From assembly GCA_902624185.1 (NCBI GenBank), contig CACNWU010000001.1, positions 4,085-68,084 of the forward strand: DNA of 64,000 nt, read 5' to 3'. The stretch comes from an uncultured Pelagibacteraceae bacterium (GTDB lineage: Bacteria > Pseudomonadota > Alphaproteobacteria > Pelagibacterales > Pelagibacteraceae). Shown here in pieces: positions 3,450 through 31,363 of the stretch. Every line of letters starts with the position of its first letter. Within the stretch, counting starts at the first letter, position 1. The notes below the pieces were generated by a model, which saw only the letters and a list, made by a program, of their open reading frames with translations, made no database searches and was not told where the DNA came from. The position numbers and the translations under genes are program-made.

Positions 3450-5002
3450 TATATAATCACATCTCTCTCTTTATTTTTGGAAACATAAATAACCGTTAAT
3501 AATCTTGCTATAAAGTAAACTGAGAAAAGAGTTGTAAAAATTCCTATACCTAATGTTAAAGAAAAACCTTTAATGGGGCCAGATCCCATAAAAAATAATA
3601 TTACCGCAGCTAACAAAGTTGTAATATTGGCGTCAAGAATAGCTGTTCTAGATTTAATATATCCAGCATCGAATGCTATGAGATTATTTTTCTCATTTTT
3701 GAGTTCTTCCCTAATTCTCTCAAAAATAAGAACATTTGCATCGACCGCCATACCTACTGTTAAGATTATTCCAGCTATTCCAGGTAAAGTAAGAGTGGCT
3801 TCGAAAATAGTTAAAATCCCAATTAAAAGAAATAAATTTATAATTAGAGTAATATTTGTAATCAATCCAAAGATTTTATATTTAATTAAGATAAATAATA
3901 TAACAAGAATAAAACCTATAACTAATGCAATTATTCCAGCTTTAATTGAGTCTTTTCCTAAATCTGGTCCAACTGTTCTTTCTTCGATAATATTTAGAGG
4001 AGCGGGCAATGCACCAGATCTTAGTAATAAAGCAAGGTCAGTAGCGGATTGAAAAGTAAATCCTCCACTAATTTGACCAGAACCACTAGCTATAGTATCT
4101 CGTATAACTGGAGCACTTATAATTTTTCCATCTAGAACAATCGCTAACTGTTTTCCAATACCTGTTGAGGTAGCTTTACCAAATCTTTTAGCACCAACCC
4201 TATCAAGCGTAAAAGAAACTACAGTTTCGTTTGTTTCATTATTCATTCTTGGTTGAGCATCTAAAAGATTATCACCACTTAGTATTATTCTTTTACTTAC
4301 AATAGCTTCATCCATGCTTTCCTCATATCTTAATTTCTCAGCACCAAAAGAATCCTCGTTATTGTTAGTAACAAACCTAAATGTTAAATTGGCAGTTTTA
4401 CCAAGTAATGATTTAATTCTCATAGGATCATCTAAACCTGGTAACTCAACTAAAATTCTATCGTTTCCTCTTTTTAAAATATTTGGCTCATTAGTTCCAA
4501 TTTCATCAATTCTTCTTCTAACTATTTCTAAAGCTTGATCCTGGGAGGAAGTTTTAAGTTCAACAATTCCTTGTTTGGAATATTCAACAAGAAAAATGTT
4601 ATTTTTTTCAATTATATTTAATTGATGAGATTTAAATCTTGGATAATAAGGATTAATATCACTTTCTTCATCATTAAAAGTTTCTATTATAGTTTGTTTA
4701 AAATCTTCTGCTACAGAAAATGAAAGTATTTGATTTTCAATTTTTATATTATTTATTCTGATATTTTTTTCTTTAAAATAATTTCTTATTGTAATTGTTA
4801 AATTTTGAAGTTTTTGTTCTATTACAGGTGTATTGTCAATTTCTAACAATAAATATGATCCACCCTGTAAATCTAGACCAAGATTAATTTTTTTATTTAT
4901 TAAGCTATTACTTAATTTTGAAAAATTTGAGGAAGCTAGTAAAATAAAAAATAATGATAATAATGTAATAATAATTATTCTTAATTTTGAAAAGTATAGC
5001 AC
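3449..5002 (-). CDS. secD: Protein translocase subunit SecD
   Basis: LGLDLQGG, LLRSGALPAP, GMAVDANVLIFERIREE; GTG start. Confidence 0.98.
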   Translation of the reverse strand: MLYFSKLRIIIITLLSLFFILLASSNFSKLSNSLINKKINLGLDLQGGSYLLLEIDNTPVIEQKLQNLTITIRNYFKEKNIRINNIKIENQILSFSVAEDFKQTIIETFNDEESDINPYYPRFKSHQLNIIEKNNIFLVEYSKQGIVELKTSSQDQALEIVRRRIDEIGTNEPNILKRGNDRILVELPGLDDPMRIKSLLGKTANLTFRFVTNNNEDSFGAEKLRYEESMDEAIVSKRIILSGDNLLDAQPRMNNETNETVVSFTLDRVGAKRFGKATSTGIGKQLAIVLDGKIISAPVIRDTIASGSGQISGGFTFQSATDLALLLRSGALPAPLNIIEERTVGPDLGKDSIKAGIIALVIGFILVILFILIKYKIFGLITNITLIINLFLLIGILTIFEATLTLPGIAGIILTVGMAVDANVLIFERIREELKNEKNNLIAFDAGYIKSRTAILDANITTLLAAVILFFMGSGPIKGFSLTLGIGIFTTLFSVYFIARLLTVIYVSKNKERDVII

Positions 5003-5018
5003 TTTATAAAAATGAAAA

Positions 5019-5306
5019 TTATTTTTTAATTTCTGGGGAATTTATTAAACTTTGAATGCCTGTACCTCTAATCACTTCCACAGTAACATTGTCAGCTATT
5101 TCTACTTCTACCTTGTCATTATCAACAACTCTAGAAATAGTTCCTGTAATTCCACCCGAGGTTACTACTTTGTCCCCCTTTTTTAAACTCTCAACCATAG
5201 CTTTATGTTCTTTAACTTTTTTTTGCTGTGGTCTTATTAAGAAAAAATAAAAGATAACAAAAATTAATATTAACGGTATAAATTGTCCTATTCCTGAACT
5301 TTCCAT
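5019..5306 (-). CDS. yajC: Preprotein translocase subunit YajC
   Basis: FYFFLIRPQQKK, GDKVVTSGG; upstream of secD. Confidence 0.98.
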   Translation of the reverse strand: MESSGIGQFIPLILIFVIFYFFLIRPQQKKVKEHKAMVESLKKGDKVVTSGGITGTISRVVDNDKVEVEIADNVTVEVIRGTGIQSLINSPEIKK

Positions 5307-5360
5307 AAAACTCCTTGCTTAAAAATGAATATTTATACCATCTATTCAATTAAAACAACT

Positions 5361-6620
5361 TTAATTCAGCGAAATTTTTTCTAAATTATTCATATAGGGT
5401 CTAAGGACTTTTGGGATAGTAATTGAACCATCTTTTTGCTGATAATTTTCTAAAATAGCAATAAGTGTTCGACCTATTGCTAAACCACTACCATTTAAAG
5501 TGCCCACATATGATATTTCTTTTTTTTGATCCTTATACCTAGCTTTCATTCTCGTGGCTTGAAAAGTAGAACATGAAGAGCAAGAAGAAATTTCTCTATA
5601 TTTATTTTCAGAAGGTAACCATACTTCTATATCATAAGTTTTTTCAGCACTAAAACCCATATCCCCACTACACAAAATTACTTTTCTATAGGGTAGTTTC
5701 AAAAGATCTAAAATATTTGTTGCACAATTCGTCATTCGTTCTAATTCTTCGAGGCATTTATCTTGTTCTACTATACTTACCATTTCAACTTTATAAAATT
5801 GATGTTGTCTAATCATGCCCTTTGTGTCTTTCCCATAACTACCAGCTTCTTTTCTAAAACATGGAGTTGAAGCAACAAATCTCAAAGGTAAAACTTTTGC
5901 TTCAATAATTTTATCTTTTACTATGTTAGTTAAAATTACTTCTGCCGTTGGTATCAAAAATTTTCTTTCAGTCCCCTCTTCAAGTTTTACCTCGAATTGA
6001 TCATTTTCAAATTTTGGGAGTTGACCAGTGCCAAACATTGAGTCTGCAGAAGCTAATAAAGGTGGTGAAATTTCTTCGTAACCATTTTTTGATACATGAA
6101 TATCTAACATAAAATTTGAAATAGCTCTTTCAAGTAATGCTAATTTATTTTTAACAAAAACAAATCTTGATCCAGTGGTTTTTGACGCTAATTCAAAATC
6201 AAGCATTCCCAAATTTTCTCCTAATTCATAATGAGACTTTGGTCTAAAATCAAAATCAGGTATCTCGCCAAATTTCTCAATCTCTAAATTATCATTTTCA
6301 TCTTTTCCAAAAGGCACATCTTCGTGAGGAACGTTTGGTATATTTGATAAAATTTTTTCTAAATCGTTTTTGATTGATTTTTGTTTTTCTACAATTTTTT
6401 CCAAGGAAGAAGAAATTTCTTTTGATTTTGAAAATAACGACTTATCTTTTGATTTCGAAATTTCTTTTTTTTCTTTTTCAAAATTTTCTTTTTTTTGTAT
6501 TAATTCTCTATTTTCTATATCTAATTTCTTAATCTTACTTAAATCTATATCTAATGATCTTTTTTCAAGAGCTTTTTTAAAAGCTTCAAAATCTTTTCGG
6601 ATTAATTTCAAGTTATGCAT
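5361..6620 (-). CDS. serS: Seryl-tRNA synthetase
   Basis: [42 protein letters not shown]. Confidence 0.99.
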
Positions 6621-7383
6621 CTGAATTTTTTAAATTTTTATTTTCTATAATTTTTACAGAAAATATTGATAATTCATATAAAATTAATAATGGTATAGCT
6701 AACCCAATTTGAGTAATAGGATCAGGCGGAGTTAATAATGCAGCTGCAGCAAATATTATCACTACTACATATTTTCTTCTTTCTTTCAAAAATTTAGAAT
6801 CAACAATACCAATTCTAGCTAATAAACTTAGAACAACAGGTAATTGAAAACTAATTCCAAATGCAAAAATAAGTTTCATAACTAGAGAAAGATATTCATT
6901 TACTTTAGCCTCAAGCTGAATAGGTAAACTCGTTGACATTCCAGTACTTTCAAATGATAAAAAAAACTTTATAGCTAAAGGCATTATCAAATAATAAACT
7001 AACATTCCTCCAAGAAAGAATAATACTGGTGTCAAAATTAGATAAGGTAAAATTGCAATTTTTTCATGTTTATAAAGACCAGGAGCAATAAATTTCCATA
7101 TTTGCATTAAAATAAATGGGCATGTAACAAAAAAAGCAGTGAAAAAAGAAACTTTTAAATATGTTAAGAAGGTTTCTTGTAGTGCGGTAAAAATTAATCT
7201 TCTATCAGATCCGTCATTTTTCACAGCCTTGGCAAATGGTTCAACTAAAAAACTATATAAATGCTCAGCAAAAAAATAACAGGCAATAAAAAAAATTATT
7301 AAAAAGATAAAACTATGTATTAGTCTTTTTCTCAACTCGGTTAAATGACTTATGAAGCCACCTTCATTTTCATCATGACTCAT
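6613..7383 (-). CDS. tatC: Twin-arginine translocase TatC
   Basis: [22 protein letters not shown]. Confidence 0.98.
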
Positions 7384-7585
7384 CTTTTTTTTCTTCTTTT
7401 TTTTCTATATGATTATCTTCAATATCGATATTTGAAACTTCATTTTGAATATTGTTAATATGTTTTTTGGCAGTTCCAATCCACGAACCAACTTTTTTTA
7501 ACATTACGGGAAAATCTTTAGGTCCGAGAACTATAATTGCTAACGAAACTACAATTAGTATCTCAAACCAACCAATAGTAGGCAT
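7373..7585 (-). CDS. tatB: Twin-arginine translocase TatB (short)
   Basis: IGWFEILIV...VLGPKDFP; between tatA and tatC. Confidence 0.93.
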   Translation of the reverse strand: MPTIGWFEILIVVSLAIIVLGPKDFPVMLKKVGSWIGTAKKHINNIQNEVSNIDIEDNHIEKKEEKKDES

Positions 7586-7590
7586 TTTAC

Positions 7591-7791
7591 TTATTCTTTA
7601 TTATTTGGATCTTGTTTTTCTTCAGAAATGTTTTTTGGATCATTATCATCAGTTACATCTGAAGCCATTCCCTTTTTAAAACTTTTTATTCCTTTGGCTA
7701 CGTCTCCCATTAAACTCGATATTTTACCTCTACCAAAAAGTAAAACTACAAGTATTACAACTATTGCTATTTGCCAAATTCCAATGCTCAT
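7591..7791 (-). CDS. tatA: Twin-arginine translocase TatA
   Basis: [28 protein letters not shown]. Confidence 0.97.
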
Positions 7792-7857
7792 ATAAATCTT
7801 ATATCCTTTTTATTAATACTTGAAAAGTATCTTTTTTTTGATTGATTTTAAAACAAT

Positions 7858-8559
7858 CTATTTATTATCTTCAGAGTCAAGAGTGCTACTTAACATTTCA
7901 TCAATATTTGAGTAAATGTCCTCTTTTTTATCATCTTGTTTTTCTCTGTAAAATTTTCCTGTTCCAAAAATTGCATTATCAATATTAGTACTATCGATTA
8001 ATCCTGCTGCTCCAAGTTCATCTACTGTAGGTAAATCAGATAATTTTTGAAGATTAAAGTGACTTAAAAAATCATCAGTAGTTACATATTGAATTGGCTT
8101 ACCAGGAACATTTTTTCTACCTCCAGGTTTAACCCAATTTAATTCCATTAATATTTCAAGAGTATTAGTTCCAAATGCAACACCTCTAATTTCTTCAATT
8201 TCAGCTCTTGTAACTGGTTGATGATAAACAATTATTGCAAGTGTTTCTATAGCAGCTCTTGATAATTTTTTCTCAACAGTTTTTTCTTGTTTCATCAAAT
8301 TTGATAAATTCGGTGACGTTCTAAAGGACCATTTTTTGGATATACATACTAAATTGATACCACGATCTGAATATTCAGATTGTAATTTTATAAGTATCTT
8401 TTCTACATCTGCTTTTTTTGAAATTTTATTTTCAATGGTTTCAATATTGAGAGGTTCTGCTGCAGCAAAAACTATCGCCTCAATTTCTTTTTCTAAAGAG
8501 GATAACTTAGATGGAAAATCTATAACATTATTTTTCTTTTTAATTTTTTTTTTTATCAT
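7858..8559 (-). CDS. scpB: SMC-Scp complex subunit ScpB
   Basis: LSRAAIETLAIIVYHQPVTRAEIEEIRGV. Confidence 0.97.
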   Translation of the reverse strand: MIKKKIKKKNNVIDFPSKLSSLEKEIEAIVFAAAEPLNIETIENKISKKADVEKILIKLQSEYSDRGINLVCISKKWSFRTSPNLSNLMKQEKTVEKKLSRAAIETLAIIVYHQPVTRAEIEEIRGVAFGTNTLEILMELNWVKPGGRKNVPGKPIQYVTTDDFLSHFNLQKLSDLPTVDELGAAGLIDSTNIDNAIFGTGKFYREKQDDKKEDIYSNIDEMLSSTLDSEDNK

Positions 8560-16618: not shown

Positions 16619-17365
16619 ATGAGCTCTGATCAAAATATTTTAGTTAAATTAAAAGACGCTGGTTTTAAAATAAATGATAAATGGCTCGTTAAAGGTGTGT
16701 CACTACAAGTTGAAAAAGGTAAAATAGTTACTCTTATTGGTCCGAACGGATCAGGAAAAAGTACAACTGCTAAAATCGCTCTTGGTATTTATAAAAAGAT
16801 TGATGGCTCAGTAGAAAAAAATACAGATAAAATTGGATATGTTCCTCAAAAAATTTCAATTGATTGGACGTTACCACTTAGAGTTTATGACTTTATGTTA
16901 CTTACTGAAAATCTTGATGAAGAAACAATTAATAATGCTTTATCATTAACTGGAGTTACTCATCTTAAAAATAAAAATTTAGGTGATTTGTCTGGTGGAG
17001 AATTTCAAAGAGTATTACTAGCAAGAGCTATATCAAAAAAACCAGAACTATTAGTTCTTGATGAGCCAGTTCAAGGGGTAGATTTTACTGGTGAAATCGC
17101 TTTATATGAATTAATTAAAAAAATCTCAGATGAATTAAATTGTGGTATTTTATTGATTTCTCACGACTTACATACTGTAATGAGCGCGACAGATCATGTG
17201 GTTTGCTTAAATGGCCATGTCTGTTGTTCAGGGTCTCCAATAGATGTAGCAAAAAATAATGAATATAAAGCTTTATTTGGTGAACAAGCCTCACAAATAC
17301 TATCAAGATATGAGCATAGACATGATCATGTTCATACAAGTGAAGGAGAAATAAAGAAAAATTAA
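16619..17365 (+). CDS. znuC: Zinc ABC transporter ATPase
   Basis: GPNGSGKST, LSGGEFQRVLLARA, CLNGHVCCSG, C-terminal HRHDH. Confidence 0.97.
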   Translation: MSSDQNILVKLKDAGFKINDKWLVKGVSLQVEKGKIVTLIGPNGSGKSTTAKIALGIYKKIDGSVEKNTDKIGYVPQKISIDWTLPLRVYDFMLLTENLDEETINNALSLTGVTHLKNKNLGDLSGGEFQRVLLARAISKKPELLVLDEPVQGVDFTGEIALYELIKKISDELNCGILLISHDLHTVMSATDHVVCLNGHVCCSGSPIDVAKNNEYKALFGEQASQILSRYEHRHDHVHTSEGEIKKN

Positions 17366-18169
17366 ATGTTTGATGATTTTTTTATAAGAGCTTTAGTGGC
17401 TGGACTTGGGGTTGCAATTGTTACAGGACCTCTTGGTTGTTTTGTTATATGGAGAAGACTTTCATATTTTGGTGATACTCTCTCCCACTCTGCATTGCTC
17501 GGTGTTACACTAGCTTATTCTATGGAGTTTAATATTGCACTATCAGTATTTATAATTTCATCTTTAATAGCTTTAACATTAATACATCTTCAAAAAAGAA
17601 CAAACTTGCCAGGTGATGCCTTATTAGGTCTTTTGGCTCATTCATCATTGGCAGTTGGACTTGTTGTTATTGGTTTTCTCACTTTTATTAGATTCGATAT
17701 AATGGGATTATTATTTGGAGATATATTGGCTGTAACAGCTAAAGATATTTTTATTATTTGGGTTGGTGGAGCTTTAATTCTATTAGTCCTAAAATTAATT
17801 TGGAAATCTTTATTCGCATCAACAGTTAACTATGAATTAGCTGAGGCAGAAGGTTTAAATCCTGATAGAGCCAAGGCAATTTTCACGATCTTAATGGCTG
17901 GTATCATCGCCATATCAATTAAAATGGTTGGATTATTATTAATTACAGGGATGTTAATTATACCAGCAGCAATGGCTAGAAACATTTCAGATAGTCCACA
18001 GAAAATGGTTGTTTACTCAATCATTGGAGGTTTATTATCAGTAATATTAGGGTTATTCTCTTCTTTAGAGTTCAATACATCTTCTGGACCTTCAATCATA
18101 GCGGCTGCTTTATTTTTATTCATACTTTCTTTATTTAATATTAAACAATCAATTAAATTGAAAAATTAA
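17366..18169 (+). CDS. znuB: Zinc ABC transporter permease
   Basis: GPLGCFVIWRRLSYFGDTLSHSALLG, LFGDILAV. Confidence 0.97.
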   Translation: MFDDFFIRALVAGLGVAIVTGPLGCFVIWRRLSYFGDTLSHSALLGVTLAYSMEFNIALSVFIISSLIALTLIHLQKRTNLPGDALLGLLAHSSLAVGLVVIGFLTFIRFDIMGLLFGDILAVTAKDIFIIWVGGALILLVLKLIWKSLFASTVNYELAEAEGLNPDRAKAIFTILMAGIIAISIKMVGLLLITGMLIIPAAMARNISDSPQKMVVYSIIGGLLSVILGLFSSLEFNTSSGPSIIAAALFLFILSLFNIKQSIKLKN

Positions 18170-18192
18170 TGAGGAATCATTAAAGTAAAAAA

Positions 18193-18576
18193 ATGCAAAA
18201 TCTTTCAAAAAATCAGCAAATTATTTTTGATTTAATTGATAAATCAGCTGAACCATTAAAAGCTTATGCAATACTTTTTAATGTTCAAAAAAAAGGAATT
18301 AAAGCTCCATTACAAGTATATCGAGCATTAGATAAGTTAGTTGAAATAGGAAAAATTCATAAAATTGAAAGCAGAAATGCCTTTATAGCCTGTCAAAATT
18401 CTAGTTGTCAGGTATCAAAAGCTACTGCATTTTCAATCTGTGAGATCTGTGAGAAAGTAACAGAAATCAGCAGTGCAAGTCTCTCTAAATACTTAACTAA
18501 TTTCAAAGACAAAGATGGTATGAAATATAGTAAATACAATCTTGAGTTTTTTGGATTATGTAAAAAGTGTAGATAA
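18193..18576 (+). CDS. zur: Zinc uptake regulator (Fur family)
   Basis: VYRALDKL, HKIES, CEIC and CKKC; follows znuCB. Confidence 0.9.
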   Translation: MQNLSKNQQIIFDLIDKSAEPLKAYAILFNVQKKGIKAPLQVYRALDKLVEIGKIHKIESRNAFIACQNSSCQVSKATAFSICEICEKVTEISSASLSKYLTNFKDKDGMKYSKYNLEFFGLCKKCR

Positions 18577-18878: not shown

Positions 18879-19007
18879 TTGACGAATCCACCCCCTAATT
18901 CTTAAAACAATAAATTTATATATAGAATTATTTTCCGTCTCAGATTACATACTCCTTAAGTCATGAATCGATAGGAACCGAAAACAATAATATAAAGGAG
19001 AAAAAGA
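18879..19007 (+). promoter_or_regulatory. Putative promoter (TTGACG...TAAAAC) and structured 5' leader with anti-SD loop
   Basis: -35-like TTGACG 18879-18884; imperfect hairpin 18933-18977; CTCCTT 18952-18957 complementary to SD AAGGAG 18995-19000. Confidence 0.45.
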
Positions 19008-19973
19008 ATGGAAATGACTTTAATTTACACGGTTATAGGTTTTGCCCTTGCCGGTTATAGCGTAATCGCTAACGACTCAATTCAAACACTAGGTACATTT
19101 ATAGCTTCAAAAAAGAAGTGGTTTAAATGGTACATACTAGCAGGATCAGCTTCTAGTGTAATGATTTTAGCTTTAGCATGGGGATGGTATTCATATGATG
19201 GTGATATTTCATACGGAAGATTAACTAGAATACCTTATCAAGAAATTCAATGGTATCATGCAGTAGCGCCTGCAATATTGCTATTATTAACAAGAATTGG
19301 AATACCGGTATCTACTACTTTCTTAGTTCTTTCAGCATTTGCTTCAACAGTTGTGCTTGAAAAAATGCTATTAAAAAGTGTAGTTGGATATGGTTTAGCG
19401 GCAATGGTCGCTTATATTGCTTGGATTGTTGTATCAAAGTTTATCAATGAAAAATTAGATGAAGTTGATGAAAAGTATATAGGCTTTTGGAGAAACTCAG
19501 TATGGGTCACTTCAGGTTGGTTATGGTGGGTTTGGTTATCTCACGATGTAGCAAACATCGCCGTATATCTTCCAAGACAACTGGATATAACAATTCTATT
19601 AACTGTAATGGCATATTTTACGGTTTTACTATTTTACATCTTTTATATTCAGGGTGGACGAATACAAACTGTAGTTTTAGAAAAAACTGGAACTAGATAT
19701 GCAAGATCAGCTACAATTATTAATGTAATTTATGCAGGTGTTTTATACTACTTTAAAGAACTTAATGATTTGCCTATGTCAACTACATGGGTTTTCGTTG
19801 GTTTATTATGCGGTAGAGAACTTGCGATTTCAACAATGAACAAAGATTATAAGTTTAAGTATGTTTTTCCATTAATTGGTAAAGACTTTCTTAAAATGAT
19901 CTTTGGATTAAGCGTATCAGTTGGAATTGTTTTAGGAATTCATTACATAATTATTCCAAATAATTGGTTCTAA
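19008..19973 (+). CDS. Multi-pass membrane protein, divergent PiT/PHO4-like (phosphate/sulfate permease-like)
   Basis: Internal repeat with ANDSIQTLGT / HDVAN and GIPVSTT / LPMSTT, echoing PiT motifs GANDxAN and PVSTTH. Confidence 0.65.
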   Translation: MEMTLIYTVIGFALAGYSVIANDSIQTLGTFIASKKKWFKWYILAGSASSVMILALAWGWYSYDGDISYGRLTRIPYQEIQWYHAVAPAILLLLTRIGIPVSTTFLVLSAFASTVVLEKMLLKSVVGYGLAAMVAYIAWIVVSKFINEKLDEVDEKYIGFWRNSVWVTSGWLWWVWLSHDVANIAVYLPRQLDITILLTVMAYFTVLLFYIFYIQGGRIQTVVLEKTGTRYARSATIINVIYAGVLYYFKELNDLPMSTTWVFVGLLCGRELAISTMNKDYKFKYVFPLIGKDFLKMIFGLSVSVGIVLGIHYIIIPNNWF

Positions 19974-19983
19974 ACAAATCTAT

Positions 19984-20014
19984 ATGGTCGTGTTAATCTA
20001 ATTAGCACGACCAT
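19984..20014. terminator. Hairpin between convergent genes, probable bidirectional terminator
   Basis: ATGGTCGTGTTAAT-cta-ATTAGCACGACCAT, 14-bp stem with one G-U pair. Confidence 0.8.
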
Positions 20015-20023
20015 TATCTTATT

Positions 20024-20362
20024 TTAAGAACTTACTTTTCCTAAATAGTTTACAAGAATAACACCAATAATTATTAAAATTATACCTACAGTTCCATAAA
20101 TATTAGGCAACTGATTGTATTTTAAAATACCAAAGATCGTTACTGCAGTAATTGTTAGTCCTCCGTATGTTGCATAGGTAAAACCAACAGGAATTATATT
20201 CATTGCTTTAGATAAACAAAATAAACATAAAACGATTGAGACTACACAAAAAATTGTTGGAAAAACATTTGTAAAACCATTGGTAGTTTTTAAGAAACCA
20301 TTAGCAGAAATTCCAAGTATAATTGCTAAAAATAAATAAATGTATCCTGATGAAAAATTCAT
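20024..20362 (-). CDS. SMR/DMT family small transporter (EmrE-like fold, Glu14 position is Gly)
   Basis: 4 TM; YIYLFLAIILG, IPVGFTYATYGG, GIILIIIGV. Confidence 0.85.
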   Translation of the reverse strand: MNFSSGYIYLFLAIILGISANGFLKTTNGFTNVFPTIFCVVSIVLCLFCLSKAMNIIPVGFTYATYGGLTITAVTIFGILKYNQLPNIYGTVGIILIIIGVILVNYLGKVSS

Positions 20363-20371
20363 CAGGTTATA

Positions 20372-21199
20372 TTATTTTATTTTTGATCTAATAAAAGCAG
20401 AAAGATGATCTATAATAAAGATTGTTACAAAAATAAGTATAATTATTGCTGATACTCTTTCATACTCAAACATCCTGAAAGATGATTGTAGTTCATATCC
20501 TATTCCACCCGCTCCAACGATTCCTAACATTGTTGCCATTCTAACATTTCTATCTAAGATATATAAATTGTTTGCAACAAATGATGGTAAGATTTGAGGT
20601 ATAACACCAAATGAAATAATTTGACTTTTAGTTGCACCAGATGATTTAAGAGCATCAATTGGTCCTTTATTAATATGCTCAATATCTTCTGCGTAAAATT
20701 TTGCTAAGAATCCCATCGTGTGTAAACCTAAAGCTAGAACGCCCGGCATAGCACCAAACCCGATAGCTATAACCAAGATCATCGCCATAATAAACTCTGG
20801 TATAGCTCTAAAAAATATAACAATAGTTTTGCAAATTATATATACAAAATAGTTTGGAGCTAAATTTCTAGCTGAAAATAATCCCAAAGGTATAGATAAA
20901 ACAATTGCAAGAAAAGTTCCTAAAATTGCAATTTCAATGGTTTCTAAGATTGCAAAAAATAATTGACTAAAATTGCTGAAATCAGGTGGTAACATTCTTG
21001 ATAAGATGTCACCAAAGTATTTTGAAGAGTCTGTTACTAATTTAATAAAATCAATCTCAAGATCTTTAACAATAAATATCAAGATTAATACCGACAAAAT
21101 GATAGAAATTAACGTTTTATATGACCATTGAGGTTTTAAGTATTTTTCAAGATTTTTATCTTTATTATCTACTTTAAGCTTTAGAATATTATCGTTCAT
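20372..21199 (-). CDS. phnE: Phosphonate ABC transporter permease
   Basis: ETIEIAILGT, RAIPE, NVRMATMLGIVGAGGIG. Confidence 0.95.
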   Translation of the reverse strand: MNDNILKLKVDNKDKNLEKYLKPQWSYKTLISIILSVLILIFIVKDLEIDFIKLVTDSSKYFGDILSRMLPPDFSNFSQLFFAILETIEIAILGTFLAIVLSIPLGLFSARNLAPNYFVYIICKTIVIFFRAIPEFIMAMILVIAIGFGAMPGVLALGLHTMGFLAKFYAEDIEHINKGPIDALKSSGATKSQIISFGVIPQILPSFVANNLYILDRNVRMATMLGIVGAGGIGYELQSSFRMFEYERVSAIIILIFVTIFIIDHLSAFIRSKIK

Positions 21200-21200
21200 A

Positions 21201-21923
21201 TTAAGTATAAATTTTCTCTAAGTTTATAGTATTTATTTTAGATGAATTTTCATCAAATATGATTTTTCCATCCATTAAGCCAACTATTCTATCTGAGTAT
21301 TTTTTTGCTAAATCTACTTGGTGAAGATTGCATAATATTGTTGTTCCAAAATCTTGGTTTATTCTTTTTAATAAAGATAAAATCAAATTTGCTGCTTTTG
21401 GATCAAGACTAGCGACAGGTTCATCGGCTAATAATAACAATGGTTTTTTAATAATGGCTCTAGCGATACCGATACGTTGTCTTTGACCACCTGATAACTC
21501 ATCTGATCTACTGTATGATTTTTCAAGTAAACCAACTGTTTCTAGAGATCTTAAAGCTTTAATTTTTTGATTTTTTGAAAATAAATAAAATAAAGATAAA
21601 AATTTATTACTTGAATTTAAAAGACCTGTTAAAACATTATTTATAGCAGACAAATTATTAACTAAATTGAATTCTTGAAAAATCATTCCTGTTTTTTTTT
21701 GAACATCTAAAATCGTATTCTTATTTACAATTTTATTATCAAAGTAAATTTCTCCTCCACTTGCTGTTTCAAGTCCATTTATACTTCTTAGTAAAGTTGT
21801 TTTACCTGATCCACTAGGTCCTAGGATGCTTACAAATTCTCCTTTATTAACTTTTAAATTAATACCCTTTAAAGCAGGAGTTCCATTATCAAAGGTTTTT
21901 TTAAGATCATTAATTTCAAGCAT
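21201..21923 (-). CDS. phnC: Phosphonate ABC transporter ATPase
   Basis: GPSGSGKTT, LSGGQRQR, ADEPVASLDP, NLHQVDLA. Confidence 0.95.
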   Translation of the reverse strand: MLEINDLKKTFDNGTPALKGINLKVNKGEFVSILGPSGSGKTTLLRSINGLETASGGEIYFDNKIVNKNTILDVQKKTGMIFQEFNLVNNLSAINNVLTGLLNSSNKFLSLFYLFSKNQKIKALRSLETVGLLEKSYSRSDELSGGQRQRIGIARAIIKKPLLLLADEPVASLDPKAANLILSLLKRINQDFGTTILCNLHQVDLAKKYSDRIVGLMDGKIIFDENSSKINTINLEKIYT

Positions 21924-21939
21924 AATAGTTTAATTTTAA

Positions 21940-22794
21940 TTAGCTTTTATCTTTATTTAATAGTTCAATAACTTCTCTTAAAACATTATAGTCAGAGTCT
22001 TTAACTTCCATGTAGTGAGACATCTTTCCACCATATCCACCTATCTCACCATGTTTATGGGCCTCTAATACTGCTTTCTTAATTTTATCCCTATCTTCTT
22101 TCGGTATCATTTTTGAATAAGCTAATGGTGGAGGTGGAACTCTATCTGATTTGTGAATAATTCTTACATCTTCTTTTTTAAAAGTACCATCTTCTAATCT
22201 TGCCTCAAAATTTCTTGAGCTCATTCCGCAAACATCAGATTGGTTATTTAATACAGCTAACAAACAAGCATCATGACTTCCGGCATAAAAAACATTTTTA
22301 AAATGGTCTTTGTTTTTAATTGAAAGATTTATTTTGCTTAACTCTACCTGGGGTATTAAATCACCACTTGTTGATCCTATGGTATTAAGGGATAAAATTT
22401 TACCCTCCACATCTTGAAATTTTTTTAAAGGACTGTCATTTTTGACAACAAAATAAGTATAATAACCAGCATCCTTCTCTCCTGGTCTTACACCTGCAGC
22501 AAAAGCTTCTGCATTAGCAATCTCAGCAGCTTTAACATATGTTTTTCCACCATACCAAGCTATATGAGCTCTACCAGCTCTCATTGCTTCAACAGCTGCA
22601 TTATAATCTGTCACTTTAATTGTATCTATTTTTAGACCTGTAAGTTTTTCAGTGATTGTAATTAAAGTTGTGTAGTCACTTTCATCACCCTTCTCACTCG
22701 CTGGAACAAACACCATTTTATAAGTATTTGAATCAGCATTAAGGTTGTTTGTTAAAAAAACTATAAGTACTATAAATAGTAATTTTTTAATCAT
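21940..22794 (-). CDS. phnD: Phosphonate/phosphite/phosphate ABC substrate-binding protein
   Basis: DYNAAVEAM, IAWYGG, STSGDLIP, GSHD; signal peptide. Confidence 0.92.
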   Translation of the reverse strand: MIKKLLFIVLIVFLTNNLNADSNTYKMVFVPASEKGDESDYTTLITITEKLTGLKIDTIKVTDYNAAVEAMRAGRAHIAWYGGKTYVKAAEIANAEAFAAGVRPGEKDAGYYTYFVVKNDSPLKKFQDVEGKILSLNTIGSTSGDLIPQVELSKINLSIKNKDHFKNVFYAGSHDACLLAVLNNQSDVCGMSSRNFEARLEDGTFKKEDVRIIHKSDRVPPPPLAYSKMIPKEDRDKIKKAVLEAHKHGEIGGYGGKMSHYMEVKDSDYNVLREVIELLNKDKS

Positions 22795-22876
22795 AATATT
22801 GATTTTAATATCATTAACTTTGTTCGCTTACAAGTTAATTTAAAATATATAAGTAGTTATTATTTCAGTAAAAACG

Positions 22877-23995
22877 CTATTTTTTTGTGAATTTTTTATT
22901 AAAGCCAGCAATAGCTTTTTTATAGTCTTCAACAGTGTCTATTTCTTTCCAACCACTTTCAATTATAACACAATGAACCTTTATTCCAATATCAACCAAC
23001 TCTTGAATAAAGTCAGTTAAATAGGCTTTTTGGAAAATCTTAGCTCTCTGGAATGGTTTATTCCAATAAATCTTTTTTAATCTATGAAAATTTTCTTTAA
23101 ATATTTTAGTTCCATGATCAGATAATTTGATCATTCCAATAAACTCACCATGAACTTCTTGATTACCTTTGTTGATTTTACCAATTTTTTCAACTTCATT
23201 ATTTGAATTAAAAATTACATTTTCAGCTTCTGAGATTGGATGATCTTTTCTTCCAACATAATAACCTCTCCAATCAATATCAACCACAACAGAAATATCA
23301 TGATTTGACTCAAGTGTTCTTTGAACTACTGAGGAGTCGAATAATATATCAGAATATGAGATTATTATATTTCCATTAATAAACTTTTCAGCATAGAAAA
23401 TTGAATTTAGAATATTGTTATTACGATAATCAGTATTTTCGAAATATTTAATACCTTTATACTTAATTTTTTCTTTTTTATAACCACGGATTAAAGATAT
23501 ATTTTCAACTCCTGAATTTTTATAGGCTTCGAGTTGTCTTTGAAGTAAAGTTTTTCCACCAAAATCAAGCATACACTTTGGCAAATTTTCAGTGTGTTTT
23601 TTTAGTCTACTGCCTAGTCCTGCTGCAATAATTAAAGCTTTTGTTTTTTTTTTACTAATTGAGTTTTCTAATAATTCAATTTGTTTTTCGTTAAGATTAT
23701 TTTCCTGGATAGTTCTTAAAAGAGAATTAATTTTAGGATTTTTAACAATAAAATCATTAATATCTGGGGCCAAAGTTTTTTTTGAATATCCAGCTAAATC
23801 ATTAAGTTTTTTGTTATCGATAGATAAAATAGAAGAAATTTTTTTTATAATATCTAATTTAGGTGCTGTTCTTTTCTCTTTTTCTATATCGTTGAGATAA
23901 GATGCTGATACTCCAATTTTTGAAGCTAATGCTCTTTGTCCTATTCCTTTTTGAATTCTTACTTCTCTTATAAATGGTCCAAATTTTTTATTCAT
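22877..23995 (-). CDS. XRE-type HTH fused to LicC/PntC-like (phosphocholine/phosphonate) cytidylyltransferase
   Basis: N-term GIGQRALASKIGVSASYLNDIEK (HTH); C-term IIAAGLGSRL..PKC, YSDILF, GEFIG, GWKEIDTVEDY. Confidence 0.85.
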   Translation of the reverse strand: MNKKFGPFIREVRIQKGIGQRALASKIGVSASYLNDIEKEKRTAPKLDIIKKISSILSIDNKKLNDLAGYSKKTLAPDINDFIVKNPKINSLLRTIQENNLNEKQIELLENSISKKKTKALIIAAGLGSRLKKHTENLPKCMLDFGGKTLLQRQLEAYKNSGVENISLIRGYKKEKIKYKGIKYFENTDYRNNNILNSIFYAEKFINGNIIISYSDILFDSSVVQRTLESNHDISVVVDIDWRGYYVGRKDHPISEAENVIFNSNNEVEKIGKINKGNQEVHGEFIGMIKLSDHGTKIFKENFHRLKKIYWNKPFQRAKIFQKAYLTDFIQELVDIGIKVHCVIIESGWKEIDTVEDYKKAIAGFNKKFTKK

Positions 23996-24005
23996 TAGTT
24001 AATAT

Positions 24006-25130
24006 TTAAAAACATATTTTTGAAAAATTTTTATCAAAATAATCTATAGTATTTCCATAATTATAAAAATTATTTTCTAAAAAATTATCAATTTCTTTTT
24101 TATCAAAACTTGCTATTGCCTTATTTATAACTTTATCAATTTCATTTAATTCATGTTTATTAAATTCATATCCAAATTTATCTTTAATAGTATCTTCTAT
24201 TGGAATTAAGGTCTTAAATTTCTCAAAACTTTCATTATGTACTTTATCAAAATCACTATAAAAAATTACAGGTTTTTTAAATAACATCATGTATTCTATT
24301 GATATACCTGAATTATCAGTGATTAGACATTTTGCATTTTTCATTGCTTCAAAATTTTCAGAATTATCATCAAATAAAAAATTTTTATGTTTAAAATTTT
24401 CTTTATAAGATTCCATTAAATTTTGTGATCTTTTTACTGTTTCTGGATGAGGTCTAAATCTTACTTTGTAACCTGAGTTTAACAAGTTTTTAAGAATTTC
24501 TTCAAAATCTTCATTAATAAAATTAAGTCTATTTTTGTTCCAAGATGGAGCAACTAGAATTTCGCTATCATTCTGTGACTCTGTGATTTTGTCTTTTAAA
24601 TAATCAAAATAAAAAAAACCTGATTTTATTAATTTTTTTTCTTTTAAATTATCTAACTTTTCTCTTTGGCGAATTTCTTCAATTTGATATTCACCATTAC
24701 ATAATATTGTATCGTAATTATCAAATGCTGTTGATGTATAGATTCGTGTCGTACTTACTGCACCGTGAAAAAAATAAATATAATTCTTCACAAAACCGTT
24801 TCTCTTAATAATATTGTTGTTAAGATCGGTCAAAGTCATAAATAAATTATCTGTTACAATACTTTTAAAGAAATACTGTAACAAAAAGCCATTACCAATA
24901 TAGACATTAACTACATTTAAATCTGAAACTTTATCGTTAATATCTGACGATACATAATATACATCTCCTGGATATTTTTTCGATAAATATTCTAATATTG
25001 GATAACCATACTTCAAATACGCCCTATTTTCAGAATAAAAAATAAATCTTGGTTTATTTTTATTTATATTATTTATTTCCTTAAATTTAAGAAAAAAATT
25101 TTTTAGATTATTTGATAATTTTTTTAACAT
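24006..25130 (-). CDS. CDP-glycerol:glycerophosphotransferase (TagB/TagF-like) family protein
   Basis: FFHG, LVAPSW, FRPHP, LITDNSGISIEY..KPVIF motifs. Confidence 0.8.
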   Translation of the reverse strand: MLKKLSNNLKNFFLKFKEINNINKNKPRFIFYSENRAYLKYGYPILEYLSKKYPGDVYYVSSDINDKVSDLNVVNVYIGNGFLLQYFFKSIVTDNLFMTLTDLNNNIIKRNGFVKNYIYFFHGAVSTTRIYTSTAFDNYDTILCNGEYQIEEIRQREKLDNLKEKKLIKSGFFYFDYLKDKITESQNDSEILVAPSWNKNRLNFINEDFEEILKNLLNSGYKVRFRPHPETVKRSQNLMESYKENFKHKNFLFDDNSENFEAMKNAKCLITDNSGISIEYMMLFKKPVIFYSDFDKVHNESFEKFKTLIPIEDTIKDKFGYEFNKHELNEIDKVINKAIASFDKKEIDNFLENNFYNYGNTIDYFDKNFSKICF

Positions 25131-25136
25131 CTTTAA

Positions 25137-26327
25137 TCATTTTACTCTTCCATAGATATCTTGAAATCTAACAATATCACTTTCTTTTAAAATTGAACCT
25201 ACTTGAGCTTCTATAATTTTAACAGGTTTTTTATAGGGATTTTCTATTCTATGGATTGCACCTAATGGAATAAAAATAGTTTCATTAGGTTTCAATGTAA
25301 AACATTTCTTGTTCAAAGTAATTTTAGGTTTACCATTAGTAACTACCCAATATTCAGCTCTGTGATGATGTTTTTGAAGACTTAATATACCTTTAGGTTT
25401 TACATATAATTCTTTTATTAAAAATTCTTTACCATTAAATAGATTTACATAACTACCCCAAGGTCTATGAAATACATTTTTCTTTTTAAAGTATTGTCTC
25501 TTATTCCTTCCATACATCTTACAGATTTCTTTCCAAGATCCTAAATCAGACCAAGGAATATCTAATTTAATAGCATTTATATCTTTAGTTTTTTCTAATA
25601 TTGCATAATCAAAAGACTTAGCTTTTGCTTTGGTAAATGCTTGTTTGTTTAAATAATACACATTACTTTTATATTTTGCTTTTGTTACTGCTTTAAGACA
25701 ATTTCTATAAATATTTGGTTGGTATTTTTTAAAATTATTAATGATTGAGTCTTTTCTCAAATAAAACATTCCAGAGTTCCAATAACCTTTTTTACTTATA
25801 ATTTGTTTAGCTTTAGCTTCTTTAGGTTTTTCTATAAATCTAGTTACTTTGGTATTTTTAGTTAAAAAATATCCAAATTCACTAGAAGGCATTGTGGGTT
25901 TAATCCCAAAAATAAATATATTATTTGGGGTTAGTTTCTTTTGATTTTTTTTAATAGCTTTATTAAATAAACCAACCTTCTCTAACAAATGATCAGCAGC
26001 AAAGAACATTAAAGGTTGTTCGTGTGGAATATCCTTTATTAATGCAGTACTTAATATAGCTGGTGCCGTATTTCTTTTTGCTGGCTCTAAAACAATTTTA
26101 AATTTTCTTATTTTGTGTTTTTTAAAATGCTGTTTAACTTGTTTTAGATATTTTGTATTTGTGCTTATGATTGGTGTATCAAATATAGAGGATTTTATTC
26201 TTTCTAGAGTTTTACCTAATAATGTCCAATTACCAAAATCTATAAACTGCTTTGCTTGATGTTTTTTAGCATTTGGCCAAAGTCTTGTTCCTGCTCCACC
26301 ACATAAAATTACTGGGCGAATTTTCAT
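25137..26327 (-). CDS. manC: Mannose-1-phosphate guanylyltransferase / mannose-6-phosphate isomerase (shortened)
   Basis: ILCGGAGTRLWP, EPAKRNTAPA, WNSGMF, WSDLGSW, RPWGSY, SLQKHHHRAE cupin. Confidence 0.92.
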   Translation of the reverse strand: MKIRPVILCGGAGTRLWPNAKKHQAKQFIDFGNWTLLGKTLERIKSSIFDTPIISTNTKYLKQVKQHFKKHKIRKFKIVLEPAKRNTAPAILSTALIKDIPHEQPLMFFAADHLLEKVGLFNKAIKKNQKKLTPNNIFIFGIKPTMPSSEFGYFLTKNTKVTRFIEKPKEAKAKQIISKKGYWNSGMFYLRKDSIINNFKKYQPNIYRNCLKAVTKAKYKSNVYYLNKQAFTKAKAKSFDYAILEKTKDINAIKLDIPWSDLGSWKEICKMYGRNKRQYFKKKNVFHRPWGSYVNLFNGKEFLIKELYVKPKGILSLQKHHHRAEYWVVTNGKPKITLNKKCFTLKPNETIFIPLGAIHRIENPYKKPVKIIEAQVGSILKESDIVRFQDIYGRVK

Positions 26328-28045
26328 TAAATCTTTGAGTAATCCTTAACTTCTTTTTTCTTACCTGGATGTGTTGGTGCACCTAAATACGCAGGTCCAA
26401 CCGTTTGTGCATATTTCCAAAGTGTTCCTGATCCAAAATCAGATTTTCTAGCTTTCCATTTTCTTCTTCTTGAGGCTAGCTGTGCTCTTGTTAATCGAAC
26501 GTTAATCGTTCCCTTTTTAGCATCTATATCAATTACATCTCCATTACGTAAAAGAGCAATAGGACCTCCTAAAGCAGCCTCTGGTCCCACGTGACCTACA
26601 CAAAAGCCTCTTGTAGCTCCTGAGAACCTCCCATCAGTAATTAGAGCAACCTTCTCTCCCTTACCTTGACCATAAATAGCACCTGTTGTTGAAAGCATTT
26701 CTCTCATACCAGGTCCACCTACTGGTCCTTCATATCTAATGATGATTACATCACCATCTTTATATTTTCTACTTTGAACAGCTTTCATTGCGCTTTCTTC
26801 ATTATCAAAACATCTTGCTCTTCCAGTAAATTGTAATTTTTTAAGTCCAGCAATTTTTACAATTCCACCTTCTGGAGCTAAATTTCCTTTTAATCCTACA
26901 ACACCACCATCTGGTGATAAAGGTTTATTGTAAGCTCTTAAAACTTTTTGCTTAGGATTGAATTTAATTCCTCTTAAATTTTCTTTCATTGTTTTGCCAG
27001 TTACAGTCATACAATCACCATGAATGTAACCACCATCATAAAGAGTTTTTAACAACATAGGTACACCCCCAGCTAACCACATATCTTTTGCAACATATTT
27101 TCCACCTGGTTTTAAATCAGCAAGATAAGGAGTTTTTTTAAATATTTTTGCAACATCCATTAAATCAAATTTAATTCCAGCTTCATTTGCTATTGCTGGT
27201 AAGTGCAAAGCTGCGTTAGTTGATCCTCCAGTTGCAGCTACAATTGTTGCAGCATTTTCTAACGCTTTTTTAGTTACAATATCTCTTGGTTTTATTTTTT
27301 TTGCTAATAGTTCCATTACCATTCTACCACTTAATTTTGCGTACTTATCTCTTTCCTCATAAGGAGCTGGTGTTCCGGCTGAGTAAGGTAATGCTAAACC
27401 AATAGCTTCTGAAACACATGCCATAGTATTGGCAGTAAACTGACCTCCACAAGCACCTGCGCTTGGACATGCAACTAATTCGAGATTTCTTAATTCTTTT
27501 GCAGACATTTGTCCTGAGGAATGTTTTCCAACAGCTTCAAAAACATCAACGACAGTTACATCTTTACCTTTATATCTTCCAGGTAGTATTGATCCACCAT
27601 AAATAAAAACACTTGGAACATTTAATCGAACCATTGACATCATTAAACCTGGTAATGATTTATCACAACCAGCAATACCTACTAACGCATCATAACAATG
27701 GCCTCTTACAGTTAGTTCTGCTGAGTCAGCAATTACTTCTCTAGAAATTAATGAAGACTTCATTCCCTCATGTCCCATTGCGATACCATCAGTTACAGTA
27801 ATTGTACAAAATTCTCTTGGAGTTCCACCTGAAGTTCTTACACCTTTTTTTACTGACTGTGCCTGTCTCATTAAAGCTATATTGCATGGAGCTGCCTCAT
27901 TCCATGTTGAAACAACACCTATAAATGGTTTTGATACATCTTTTTCAGTTTCCCCCATTGCATAATAAAAAGATCTATGTGGAGCTCTATCAGCACCTAA
28001 AGATGTATGTCTACTTGGTAATTTTTTCTTATTAAATTTCCGCAT
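26327..28045 (-). CDS. ilvD: Dihydroxy-acid dehydratase
   Basis: [32 protein letters not shown]. Confidence 0.98.
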
Positions 28046-30994: not shown

Positions 30995-31363
30995 CTACCC
31001 CACTTTAGAAATGTTATTATTTATTTGTAAAGATTTACTAAATTTTATTTTTTGATCTTGTGTAAGCTCTGCATAAATTTTAGCTAAAAAATTATAATTA
31101 ACATTCATATGTCCTTCTTGTGACTTTTCTAAATTTATTAGATATTCAGAAAAATCTTCAAAAAAATAATTTATTGGTACTTTTAAATAGTTTGAAAGTT
31201 GCAATAATCTTATTGAACTTACACCATTAGTCCCTTTTTCATATTTTTGAATTTGTTGAAATGTGACGTTAATTGCTTTTGCTACTTTTGTTTGTGTTAA
31301 ACCTAAAGCCAACCTTCTAAGCTTGAGCTTATTGCCTAGATGCTTATTAAAATTATCTTCCAT
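30995..31363 (-). CDS. XRE-family HTH regulator (PhrR/PraR-like)
   Basis: RRLALGLTQ..VTFQQIQKYEKGTN motif of the conserved alphaproteobacterial family. Confidence 0.88.
   Translation of the reverse strand: MEDNFNKHLGNKLKLRRLALGLTQTKVAKAINVTFQQIQKYEKGTNGVSSIRLLQLSNYLKVPINYFFEDFSEYLINLEKSQEGHMNVNYNFLAKIYAELTQDQKIKFSKSLQINNNISKVG

Follow-up and report, generated by a model that had tools for sequence, protein, structure and literature searches.

A putative enzyme-repressor fusion and its candidate operator at phosphonate supply genes of SAR11 and other marine bacteria

The 64,000-nucleotide stretch of an uncultured Pelagibacteraceae bacterium analyzed here (assembly GCA_902624185.1, contig CACNWU010000001.1; herein referred to as the window) carries a gene that joins an XRE/Cro-type helix-turn-helix (HTH) to a LicC/PntC-type cytidylyltransferase and lies next to the phosphonate importer genes phnDCE. 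We hypothesize, with a probability of roughly 0.6, that this fusion is a bifunctional enzyme-repressor of the BirA, NadR, and BzdR kind, which makes a cytidine monophosphate (CMP)-phosphonate and gates phosphonate uptake. The initial annotation of this DNA had proposed an enzyme-regulator controlling the adjacent importer, and that proposal is now supported by an inverted repeat at the phnD promoter that is both conserved and restricted to loci with the fusion. The features that carry the argument are the following:

22877-23995, minus strand: fusion gene P0001 (HTH::cytidylyltransferase), 372 residues, stop codon included in the coordinates (open reading frame [ORF] list, translation, Pfam, AlphaFold2)
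23816-23995, minus strand: XRE/Cro-type HTH, residues 1-60 (HTH_3, E 1.6e-10)
23645-23815, minus strand: helical module with the predicted dimer interface, residues 61-117 (helices in the model, homodimer prediction)
22880-23644, minus strand: LicC/PntC-type cytidylyltransferase domain, residues 118-372 (intact catalytic signature, Foldseek, VIA-align)
22822-22839, minus strand: candidate operator ATTAAC-TTGTAA-GCGAAC, an 18-bp imperfect inverted repeat of 6-6-6 layout (comparative alignment)
22809-22821, minus strand: 13 extra bases, AAAGTTAATGATA, near-invariant in the closest SAR11 loci (alignment of the spacer between fusion and phnD)
22844-22872, minus strand: candidate sigma-70-type promoter for phnDCE, TTTACT, 17 nt, TATATT (consensus scan)

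The fusion gene starts with ATG and translates without an internal stop. Both of its Pfam domains score above their cut-offs within this single 372-residue minus-strand frame, HTH_3 at residues 9-58 (41.2 bits, cut-off 23) and NTP_transf_3 at residues 120-238 (40.6 bits, cut-off 27), with HTH_19 as a further match (36.7 bits, cut-off 30.2), which bears out the initial annotation of an HTH and an NTP-transferase in one frame; the catalytic motifs quoted there are likewise all present in the translation (AAGLGSRLKKHTENLPK at residues 124-140, YSD at 214-216, and EIDTVED at 351-357). An AlphaFold2 model built from 115 relatives (predicted local distance difference test [pLDDT] 94.7, predicted template modeling score 0.86) places eight helices in the N-terminal part, followed by a nucleotidyltransferase fold. 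The first five helices form the XRE bundle (5-15, 20-27, 31-38, 47-57, and 61-72; pLDDT >92), and the module of residues 61-117 comprises the helices 61-72, 77-85, 87-98, and 103-113. Structure prediction, proposed in the initial annotation as a check, thus yields an HTH bundle, a helical module, and a nucleotidyltransferase fold; of the ~115-residue "XRE-HTH and linker" described there, the HTH stands but the loose linker does not.

The relatives of residues 5-117 in the PDB are the repressors Rco (8bny), SinR, and C.AhdI, and the HTH residues Q20, R21, Y33, N35, I37, E38, and R42 are unchanged down to relatives of 37% identity, over which range S32 is conserved as well. The presumed linker is probably a dimerization module, as in small XRE repressors, since the predicted homodimer interface consists of residues 62-117 only. 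The homodimer prediction scores 0.50 against 0.00 for the best control, a mark reached by 20 of 30 solved homodimers and by one of 23 single chains in a benchmark whose counts hold only roughly for a prediction made, like this one, with its own alignment. Across three runs at least 67% of the contacts agree, with a partner pLDDT of at least 80; the model may, in part, be remembering solved XRE repressor dimers.

By its modeled fold and its motifs, the C-terminal domain is assigned to the LicC/PntC group. Foldseek ranks PntC (6pd2, 7.8e-19) and LicC (1jyk, 5.3e-17) first; VIA-align, run against 48,161 representative chains, gives LicC a Z of 27.5 (root-mean-square deviation 2.0 over 224 aligned residues) and PntC a Z of 26.4; and the nearest solved sequences to the C-terminal part are LicC 1jyk (4e-13) and the PntC-aminotransferase fusion 6pd1 (2.8e-10). 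The class named in the initial annotation, a phosphocholine/phosphonate cytidylyltransferase, is thereby matched by the best structural hits. The fusion keeps the (L)AAG-x-G-[ST]-R-[LM]...P-K signature together with the acidic metal ligands D216, D239, E351, and D353, and has none of the family's 25 invariant or nearly invariant positions altered. Of 79 distinct fusions of full length, 77 have G-x-G-S-R...P-K, D216, E351, and D353 intact. R130, K140, and D353 are lost in the other two, L059 (38% identical) and L060 (49% identical), which keep the HTH and the operator candidate, so that ligand sensing can be a retained role. In this set the HTH has a mean pairwise identity of 0.62, the dimer module one of 0.50, and the enzyme domain one of 0.76, and the median ratio of nonsynonymous to synonymous substitution rates over 74 close pairs is 0.105, 0.103, and 0.035, respectively; all three parts are under purifying selection. 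The fusion is also the sole cytidylyltransferase of its gene module, in which it adjoins a TagF-like or LicD transferase that needs a donor activated with cytidine diphosphate (CDP) or CMP, and its enzyme domain is apparently active.

The 82-nt spacer between the fusion gene and phnD (22795-22876), singled out in the initial annotation as the region to examine, holds the 18-bp inverted repeat. This spacer varies among relatives except for one block, and anchoring the loci on that block yields 86 distinct instances of [A/G]TTAAC-TTGT[A/T][A/T]-GCGAAC-A, in which T2, T3, G9, T10, and the half-site GCGAAC are invariant or nearly so; one locus (L066) has a perfect inverted repeat, GTTCGC-GTGTTA-GCGAAC. 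The element occurs in all 75 informative loci (those in which the fusion is full-length and followed by 400 nt or more), 71 of them matching the pattern and four carrying the single substitution GCGGAC, and no GCGAAC-type match lies elsewhere in these loci. It is single-copy in the window and in the whole genome. Each of 19 fusion-bearing genomes holds it once at up to two mismatches, with one extra two-mismatch match in one of them, and among 401 sampled Pelagibacterales genomes the true motif is found only beside the fusion, in five genomes; two more two-mismatch matches there adjoin neither the fusion nor phnD. The recognition helix is invariant, which leaves a test for co-variation with the left half-site without power. 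The 13 extra bases AAAGTTAATGATA form with the left arm a second, offset palindrome, TTAACTT-N11-AAGTTAA, which falls outside a simple operator model.

The candidate -10 hexamer of phnDCE ends 4 nt ahead of the operator candidate. The promoter scan of the window was used only in combination with comparative data; in many related lineages a clear TTGACA lies 14-16 nt upstream of the element, which therefore overlaps the (extended) -10 or the transcription start, and this placement is the arrangement of a putative repressor blocking RNA polymerase. In SAR11-like loci the element lies between the fusion and the next gene, and a second copy precedes the fusion gene by ~60 nt in nine of them, whose fusion has a promoter to itself. 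Higher-G+C lineages in which fusion and phnD abut have their sole copy 33-100 nt before the fusion gene. In five loci with an extra copy ~60 nt before the fusion gene (L037, L038, L040, L041, and L070), an inverted GTTCG follows ~16 nt later, which may be a second half-site or an auxiliary operator. A Pho-box was considered for the element and rejected on inspection of the sequence, which has no 7-nt direct repeats with 11-bp phasing.

By tblastn, 71 of the 75 loci have a gene of PhnD type behind the element, and Pfam adds one more (L059), bringing those with phnDCE to 72; in the others the element fronts a methylphosphonate synthase (MPnS) gene (two loci, L035 and L108) or a phosphoenolpyruvate (PEP) mutase gene (one locus, L060). 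The common denominator appears to be that the operator candidate fronts whichever gene supplies the small phosphonate. The fusion of the SAR11 locus L035 is 82% identical to that of the window, has the same operator, and stands in a synthesis cluster of the order TagF-like, PhyH, cytidylyltransferase-like::PEP mutase, thiamine pyrophosphate (TPP) enzyme, iron-dependent alcohol dehydrogenase, fusion, operator, MPnS, and SMR. The TPP enzyme is of the phosphonopyruvate decarboxylase type, and the core reads pepM-ppd-pdh-fusion-operator-mpnS; the 435-residue protein encoded after the operator matches MPnS 6b9s at 1.7e-108 and HEPD at 2.5e-63, and the cluster is without a transaminase for 2-aminoethylphosphonate (2-AEP). 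MPnS likewise follows the operator in L108, PepM lies upstream in L077, L090, and L125, and in L060 the sensor-like variant of the fusion is directly followed by a cytidylyltransferase-like::PEP mutase. In L059, the fusion (3995-5101) and phnDCE (5155-7999) are followed from 8019 by an ORF that begins like the cytidylyltransferase-like::PEP mutase gene; uptake and synthesis may share one operon there.

PntC was named by Rice et al. for enzymes encoded near ppm (PEP mutase). Such a neighbor is missing from the genome of the window and present in L035, L060, L077, L090, and L125, and the window copy is the import-fed variant of these pepM-linked orthologs. No gene for PEP mutase, MPnS, or PhnJ was found in the genome, a provisional result at 80% completeness. 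The PF13714 matches in it are an isocitrate lyase and a PrpB-like protein; the best of them was rejected as pepM on account of its PrpB/isocitrate-lyase motif KRCGH, without EDK-x5-NS, and a SAR11 PepM query matched only the unrelated cytidylyltransferase-like part of another protein. With pepM, mpnS, and phnJ lacking, the module appears to be the "take" counterpart of the SAR11 "make" cluster, apparently devoted to import, activation with cytidine triphosphate (CTP), and transfer to a surface glycan rather than to eating the phosphonate.

We propose that PhnDCE would import a small phosphonate, most likely methylphosphonate and less likely 2-AEP, which the C-terminal domain of the fusion would convert with CTP to the CMP-phosphonate; homology and gene context point to this reaction and to the following step, in which the TagF-like transferase would attach the activated phosphonate to a surface glycan or glycoprotein. 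The XRE HTH, paired through the module of residues 61-117, would bind ATTAAC-TTGTAA-GCGAAC in the -10/start region of phnD and thus repress phnDCE-SMR, as the comparative genomics suggests. Occupancy of the enzyme domain by substrate or CMP-product might set the affinity for DNA, a coupling that is pure inference, and could produce end-product (co-repressor) or substrate-excess repression, as with BirA, with phosphonate supply matched to use. The most economical choice is end-product logic, since one and the same operator precedes the importer in certain relatives and the synthase in the rest; the sign of the ligand effect (co-repression) is a guess. According to both sequence and predicted structure, one chain combines a DNA-binding domain with an enzyme that appears catalytically competent, and the genes fronted by the operator candidate, phnDCE, mpnS, or pepM, belong to the enzyme's own pathway as presumed sources of its substrate. 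A more specific version, in which one protein makes CMP-methylphosphonate and represses the supply gene, mpnS in "makers" and phnDCE in "takers," is tentative and falls somewhat short of even odds. If it holds, the window belongs to a taker whose surface is decorated with phosphonate scavenged from seawater, neither made nor eaten, and the fusion would be the first regulator to be known for the production and uptake of methylphosphonate in the sea.

Several observations weigh against this hypothesis. The sigma-70 scan of the window found 37 sites where 40.9 were expected, which is not above chance. Here the fusion gene has neither its own promoter nor its own operator and is probably transcribed from the glycan genes upstream, and with no terminator between fusion and phnD, read-through could bypass the control. 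The left half-site ATTAAC is degenerate relative to GCGAAC, and the TGT of the spacer as well as the 13 near-invariant SAR11 bases are conserved. These features go beyond a plain symmetric operator, and a portion of the element may serve as promoter or leader. Since LicC and one PntC are monomeric (PMC6697681), dimerization would fall solely to the predicted N-terminal module. The solved enzymes closest to the fusion act on phosphocholine or 2-AEP, relatives of PhnD bind phosphite, methylphosphonate, or 2-AEP, and the 80% completeness of the genome, which makes its lack of PEP mutase, MPnS, and PhnJ provisional, counts on the same side.

The substrate is thus one point at which the hypothesis might be amended, the same architecture acting on 2-AEP, phosphocholine, phosphoethanolamine, or another organophosphorus head group. 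This is unlikely, though it deserves real weight given that LicC uses phosphocholine and PntC 2-AEP, that the neighboring transferase in one SAR11 locus is LicD, and that the related PhnD of Escherichia coli is established to bind 2-AEP tightly; against it stand the 82% identical ortholog directly before MPnS in a full pepM-ppd-pdh-mpnS cluster that lacks the AEP transaminase, the absence of a choline kinase beside any module, and a binding protein of PhnD/PtxB type. The substrate specificity of PntC is steric (PMC6697681) and is not legible from the sequence of the fusion. We consider it improbable that the fusion is a regulator only, with the nucleotidyltransferase domain a ligand sensor as in BzdR and another enzyme activating the phosphonate. 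L059 and L060, which lost catalytic residues and kept the HTH, the operator, and phosphonate genes, would fit this, as would the second cytidylyltransferase-like domain fused to PepM in the biosynthetic clusters, yet the fusion of the window and 77 of 79 relatives retain all residues that are invariant in the family, the enzyme domain evolves three times slower than the HTH, and the import modules have no other cytidylyltransferase beside their TagF-like or LicD transferase.

The converse, an enzyme only, would make the XRE-like domain structural or oligomerizing and the element a promoter, a leader, or another factor's site. It is established that HppE, HEPD, and MPnS enzymes carry HTH-like domains with no DNA-binding role, and two proteins, P0157 and P0160, combine the same nucleotidyltransferase with a cupin and an HTH; we nonetheless give this explanation only a small chance, since the N-terminal part resembles the repressors Rco and SinR, whereas its likeness to the HTH-like domain of MPnS was rejected as not significant (E 1.7), the inverted repeat with its invariant GCGAAC tracks the fusion across 23-50% G+C and shifts with the promoter, the element is found a single time per genome and never without the fusion, and no other regulator is conserved in the module. 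There is a very slight chance that the element acts as RNA, either as a leader hairpin stabilizing the phnD message or as a riboswitch-like switch. In the closest SAR11 loci the TTAACTT-N11-AAGTTAA hairpin is possible, probably at the 5' end of the transcript, but the left half-site is the -10 hexamer in many lineages and hence untranscribed there, which argues that the element acts as DNA. In addition, most lineages could pair only four of the six positions of the 6-bp arms, the outer arms of SAR11 do not occur elsewhere, in contrast to the invariant nonpairing core, and Rfam has no match at the element: a search of 19000-27000 at a permissive threshold returned two chance-level matches only. 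The hairpin was rejected on these grounds, with its left arm inside the -10 in many lineages and its arms not kept paired.

The bifunctional enzyme-repressor that we favor would belong to an already known kind, enzyme-repressor fusions (BirA, NadR, BzdR, and RbkR). BirA and NadR, like the fusion as proposed here, join an N-terminal HTH to a nucleotidyl-transferring enzyme of the regulated pathway, and in BirA it is the enzyme-bound adenylate that drives dimerization and operator binding. Their folds are unrelated to the fusion, BirA being a winged helix with a class II ligase fold and NadR an HTH with NMNAT and kinase domains, whereas the fusion has an XRE-type HTH and a GlmU/LicC-type cytidylyltransferase, and its target would be a substrate importer or synthase. 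BzdR (XRE HTH with a shikimate-kinase-like domain; PMC3602430) and the archaeal RbkR (riboflavin kinase with an HTH; PMC5397151) are pathway repressors composed of an enzyme fold and a DNA-binding domain, and the N-terminal domain of BzdR is likewise of XRE type. BzdR uses its enzyme-like domain purely as a sensor, in contrast to the fusion, in which nearly all members have intact catalytic residues; only the L059 and L060 lineages resemble the BzdR end state. Rco, encoded on plasmid pLS20 (8bny; PMC9986798), and SinR are the best sequence matches of residues 1-117 and share the HTH, a helical oligomerization region (predicted in the fusion), and a GTTC-type inverted-repeat operator (a candidate in the fusion), but unlike the fusion they are small stand-alone repressors with no enzyme domain.

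On the enzymatic side, PntC (Tde1415 of Treponema denticola, 6PD1/6PD2; Ari1348) and LicC (Streptococcus pneumoniae, 1JYK) share the fold and signature motifs of the fusion and, as is presumed of it, use CTP to activate a phosphorus head group for surface decoration (PMC6697681), PntC with a kcat of about 1-4 per s (PMC6697681). They have no DNA-binding domain and only ~20% identity to the enzyme domain of the fusion, and PntC is fused to PEP mutase or to an aminotransferase, or stands alone, where the substrate of the fusion in the window would be imported rather than made. The lic pathway (LicB importer, LicA kinase, LicC, and LicD) follows the same logic of import, activation, and transfer, except that the present module needs no kinase and has a PhnD-type ABC importer in place of LicB. 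The SAR11 mpnS cluster (L035; methylphosphonate synthesis of SAR11 and Nitrosopumilus) shares with the module the TagF-like gene, the fusion, the operator, and SMR; it differs in that the module has the ABC importer in place of the biosynthetic genes, and regulation would be built into the enzyme. An XRE::cytidylyltransferase controlling phosphonate supply is not described in the PntC paper, the phosphonate inventories, the SAR11 phosphonate paper, or the results of keyword searches, a coverage that leaves most subscription journals outside its scope and is not proof of absence; the initial annotation had not recognized the architecture as characterized either, and we found no paper describing it.

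SAR11 bacteria have very few transcription factors, and their regulation is little understood. Methylphosphonate from SAR11 and Thaumarchaeota is a proposed source of methane in oxygenated seawater, and to our knowledge nothing is known of how its synthesis is controlled. The fusion family offers a concrete protein and a defined 18-bp site that apparently gate phosphonate synthesis (mpnS, pepM) or uptake (phnDCE). A further implication is that PhnDCE may serve some cells for surface display and not for nutrition, which would alter the reading of phnD counts in metagenomes. In terms of enzyme evolution, the clade spans a natural progression toward regulators, from the proposed bifunctional form to two lineages that have ended as apparent sensors.

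The fusion, with both its domains and a length of 370-383 residues throughout, is represented by >120 protein clusters (identity of at least 80%). A scan of species genomes with residues 1-125 found it in 19 Pelagibacteraceae single-cell or metagenome-assembled genomes, and a scan with an alignment of N-terminal regions found it on 80 metagenome contigs (37-94% identical), whose 23-50% G+C indicates that the family is not confined to SAR11. This spread rules out a chance fusion or assembly artifact, which the initial annotation had named, with orthologs encoded as two separate genes, as what would refute its proposal. A maximum-likelihood tree of the enzyme domain groups 40 of the 41 fusions into a single clade (Shimodaira-Hasegawa-like approximate likelihood ratio test 83) of SAR11 and higher-G+C marine bacteria at 37-98% identity. 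No two-gene form was seen within this clade, whose sisters are the stand-alone enzyme P0126 and a fusion with a GT2 glycosyltransferase. The remaining fusion, P0124 (46% identical), is placed elsewhere with a support of 99, which implies a second origin, and lies in a polysaccharide cluster without phnD. The fusion gene is rare among species: five of the 401 sampled Pelagibacterales genomes have the unit of fusion, motif, and phnD, and one more has a contig ending at phnD.

Proteins related to the enzyme domain also occur fused to PEP mutase, to iron-dependent alcohol dehydrogenase, or to HEPD/MPnS-like cupins, and the closest stand-alone relatives lie in analogous modules that pair an MFS transporter with a CDP-alcohol phosphotransferase. 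P0123, a lone representative that may be chimeric, joins an Arm-DNA-binding domain to the nucleotidyltransferase. The metagenome contigs L112 (254-1409), L064 (184-780), and L071 carry fusion genes that are truncated or rearranged, and in L112 the HTH and the first third of the enzyme lead directly into a TagF-like gene, of which the C-terminal half is present. Such structures could stem from recombination, decay, or an error of assembly.

In the window, the fusion belongs to a co-oriented module that begins just after ilvD and reads ManC-like, TagF-like, fusion, operator candidate, phnD, phnC, phnE, and SMR, ending at a hairpin. Its other features are:

25137-26327, minus strand: mannose-1-phosphate guanylyltransferase (ManC-like), first gene after ilvD (NTP_transferase and MannoseP_isomer)
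24006-25130, minus strand: TagF-like CDP-/CMP-alcohol phosphotransferase, 10 nt upstream of the fusion gene (Atlas features, structure model)
21940-22794, minus strand: phnD, periplasmic phosphonate-binding protein, first gene behind the operator candidate (Phosphonate-bd, 2.9e-49)
21201-21923, minus strand: phnC, importer ATPase (ABC_tran)
20372-21199, minus strand: phnE, importer permease (BPD_transp_1)
20024-20362, minus strand: SMR-family membrane protein, last gene of the unit (Multi_Drug_Res, 2.6e-17)
19984-20014: terminator-like hairpin after the SMR gene

The ManC-like protein reaches 359 bits with TIGR01479, slightly below the cut-off of 373. The TagF-like neighbor has no Pfam or NCBIfam family above cut-off and no PDB match below E 0.13; a language-model feature search (Atlas) returned Glyphos_transf clusters at 0.99, and its structure model (pLDDT 83) is matched best in Foldseek by the teichoic acid polymerase TagF (3l7j, 1.1e-10) and TarL. 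That this transferase uses the activated phosphonate is probable; LicD occupies its position in other SAR11 loci. PhnD scores 175 bits with TIGR01098 (cut-off 112) and has PhnD and PtxB as its PDB relatives, and a PhnD of the window type is found in six of the 401 sampled genomes, adjoining the fusion in five and standing at a contig end in the sixth. The SMR protein (20024-20362) is 80% identical to that ending the mpnS cluster (L035, 8864-9205), the gene being the fixed last one of both cassettes, and may act like a flippase or as an exporter.

Elsewhere in the genome, a 364-residue ORF of contig C20 (locus L003) has an XRE HTH that is 40% identical to residues 3-83 of the fusion (C20, 7373-7603); it adjoins isocitrate lyase (C20, 6038-6553) and may encode a RamB-like regulator of acetate or glyoxylate metabolism. 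The window itself also holds a stand-alone XRE-type HTH protein of 122 residues upstream of valS (30995-31363, minus strand), unconnected with the fusion. At 16619-18576 on the plus strand, the translations show a ZnuC/ZnuB-like ABC pair followed by a 127-residue protein that could, by its position, be a Zur/Fur-type regulator.

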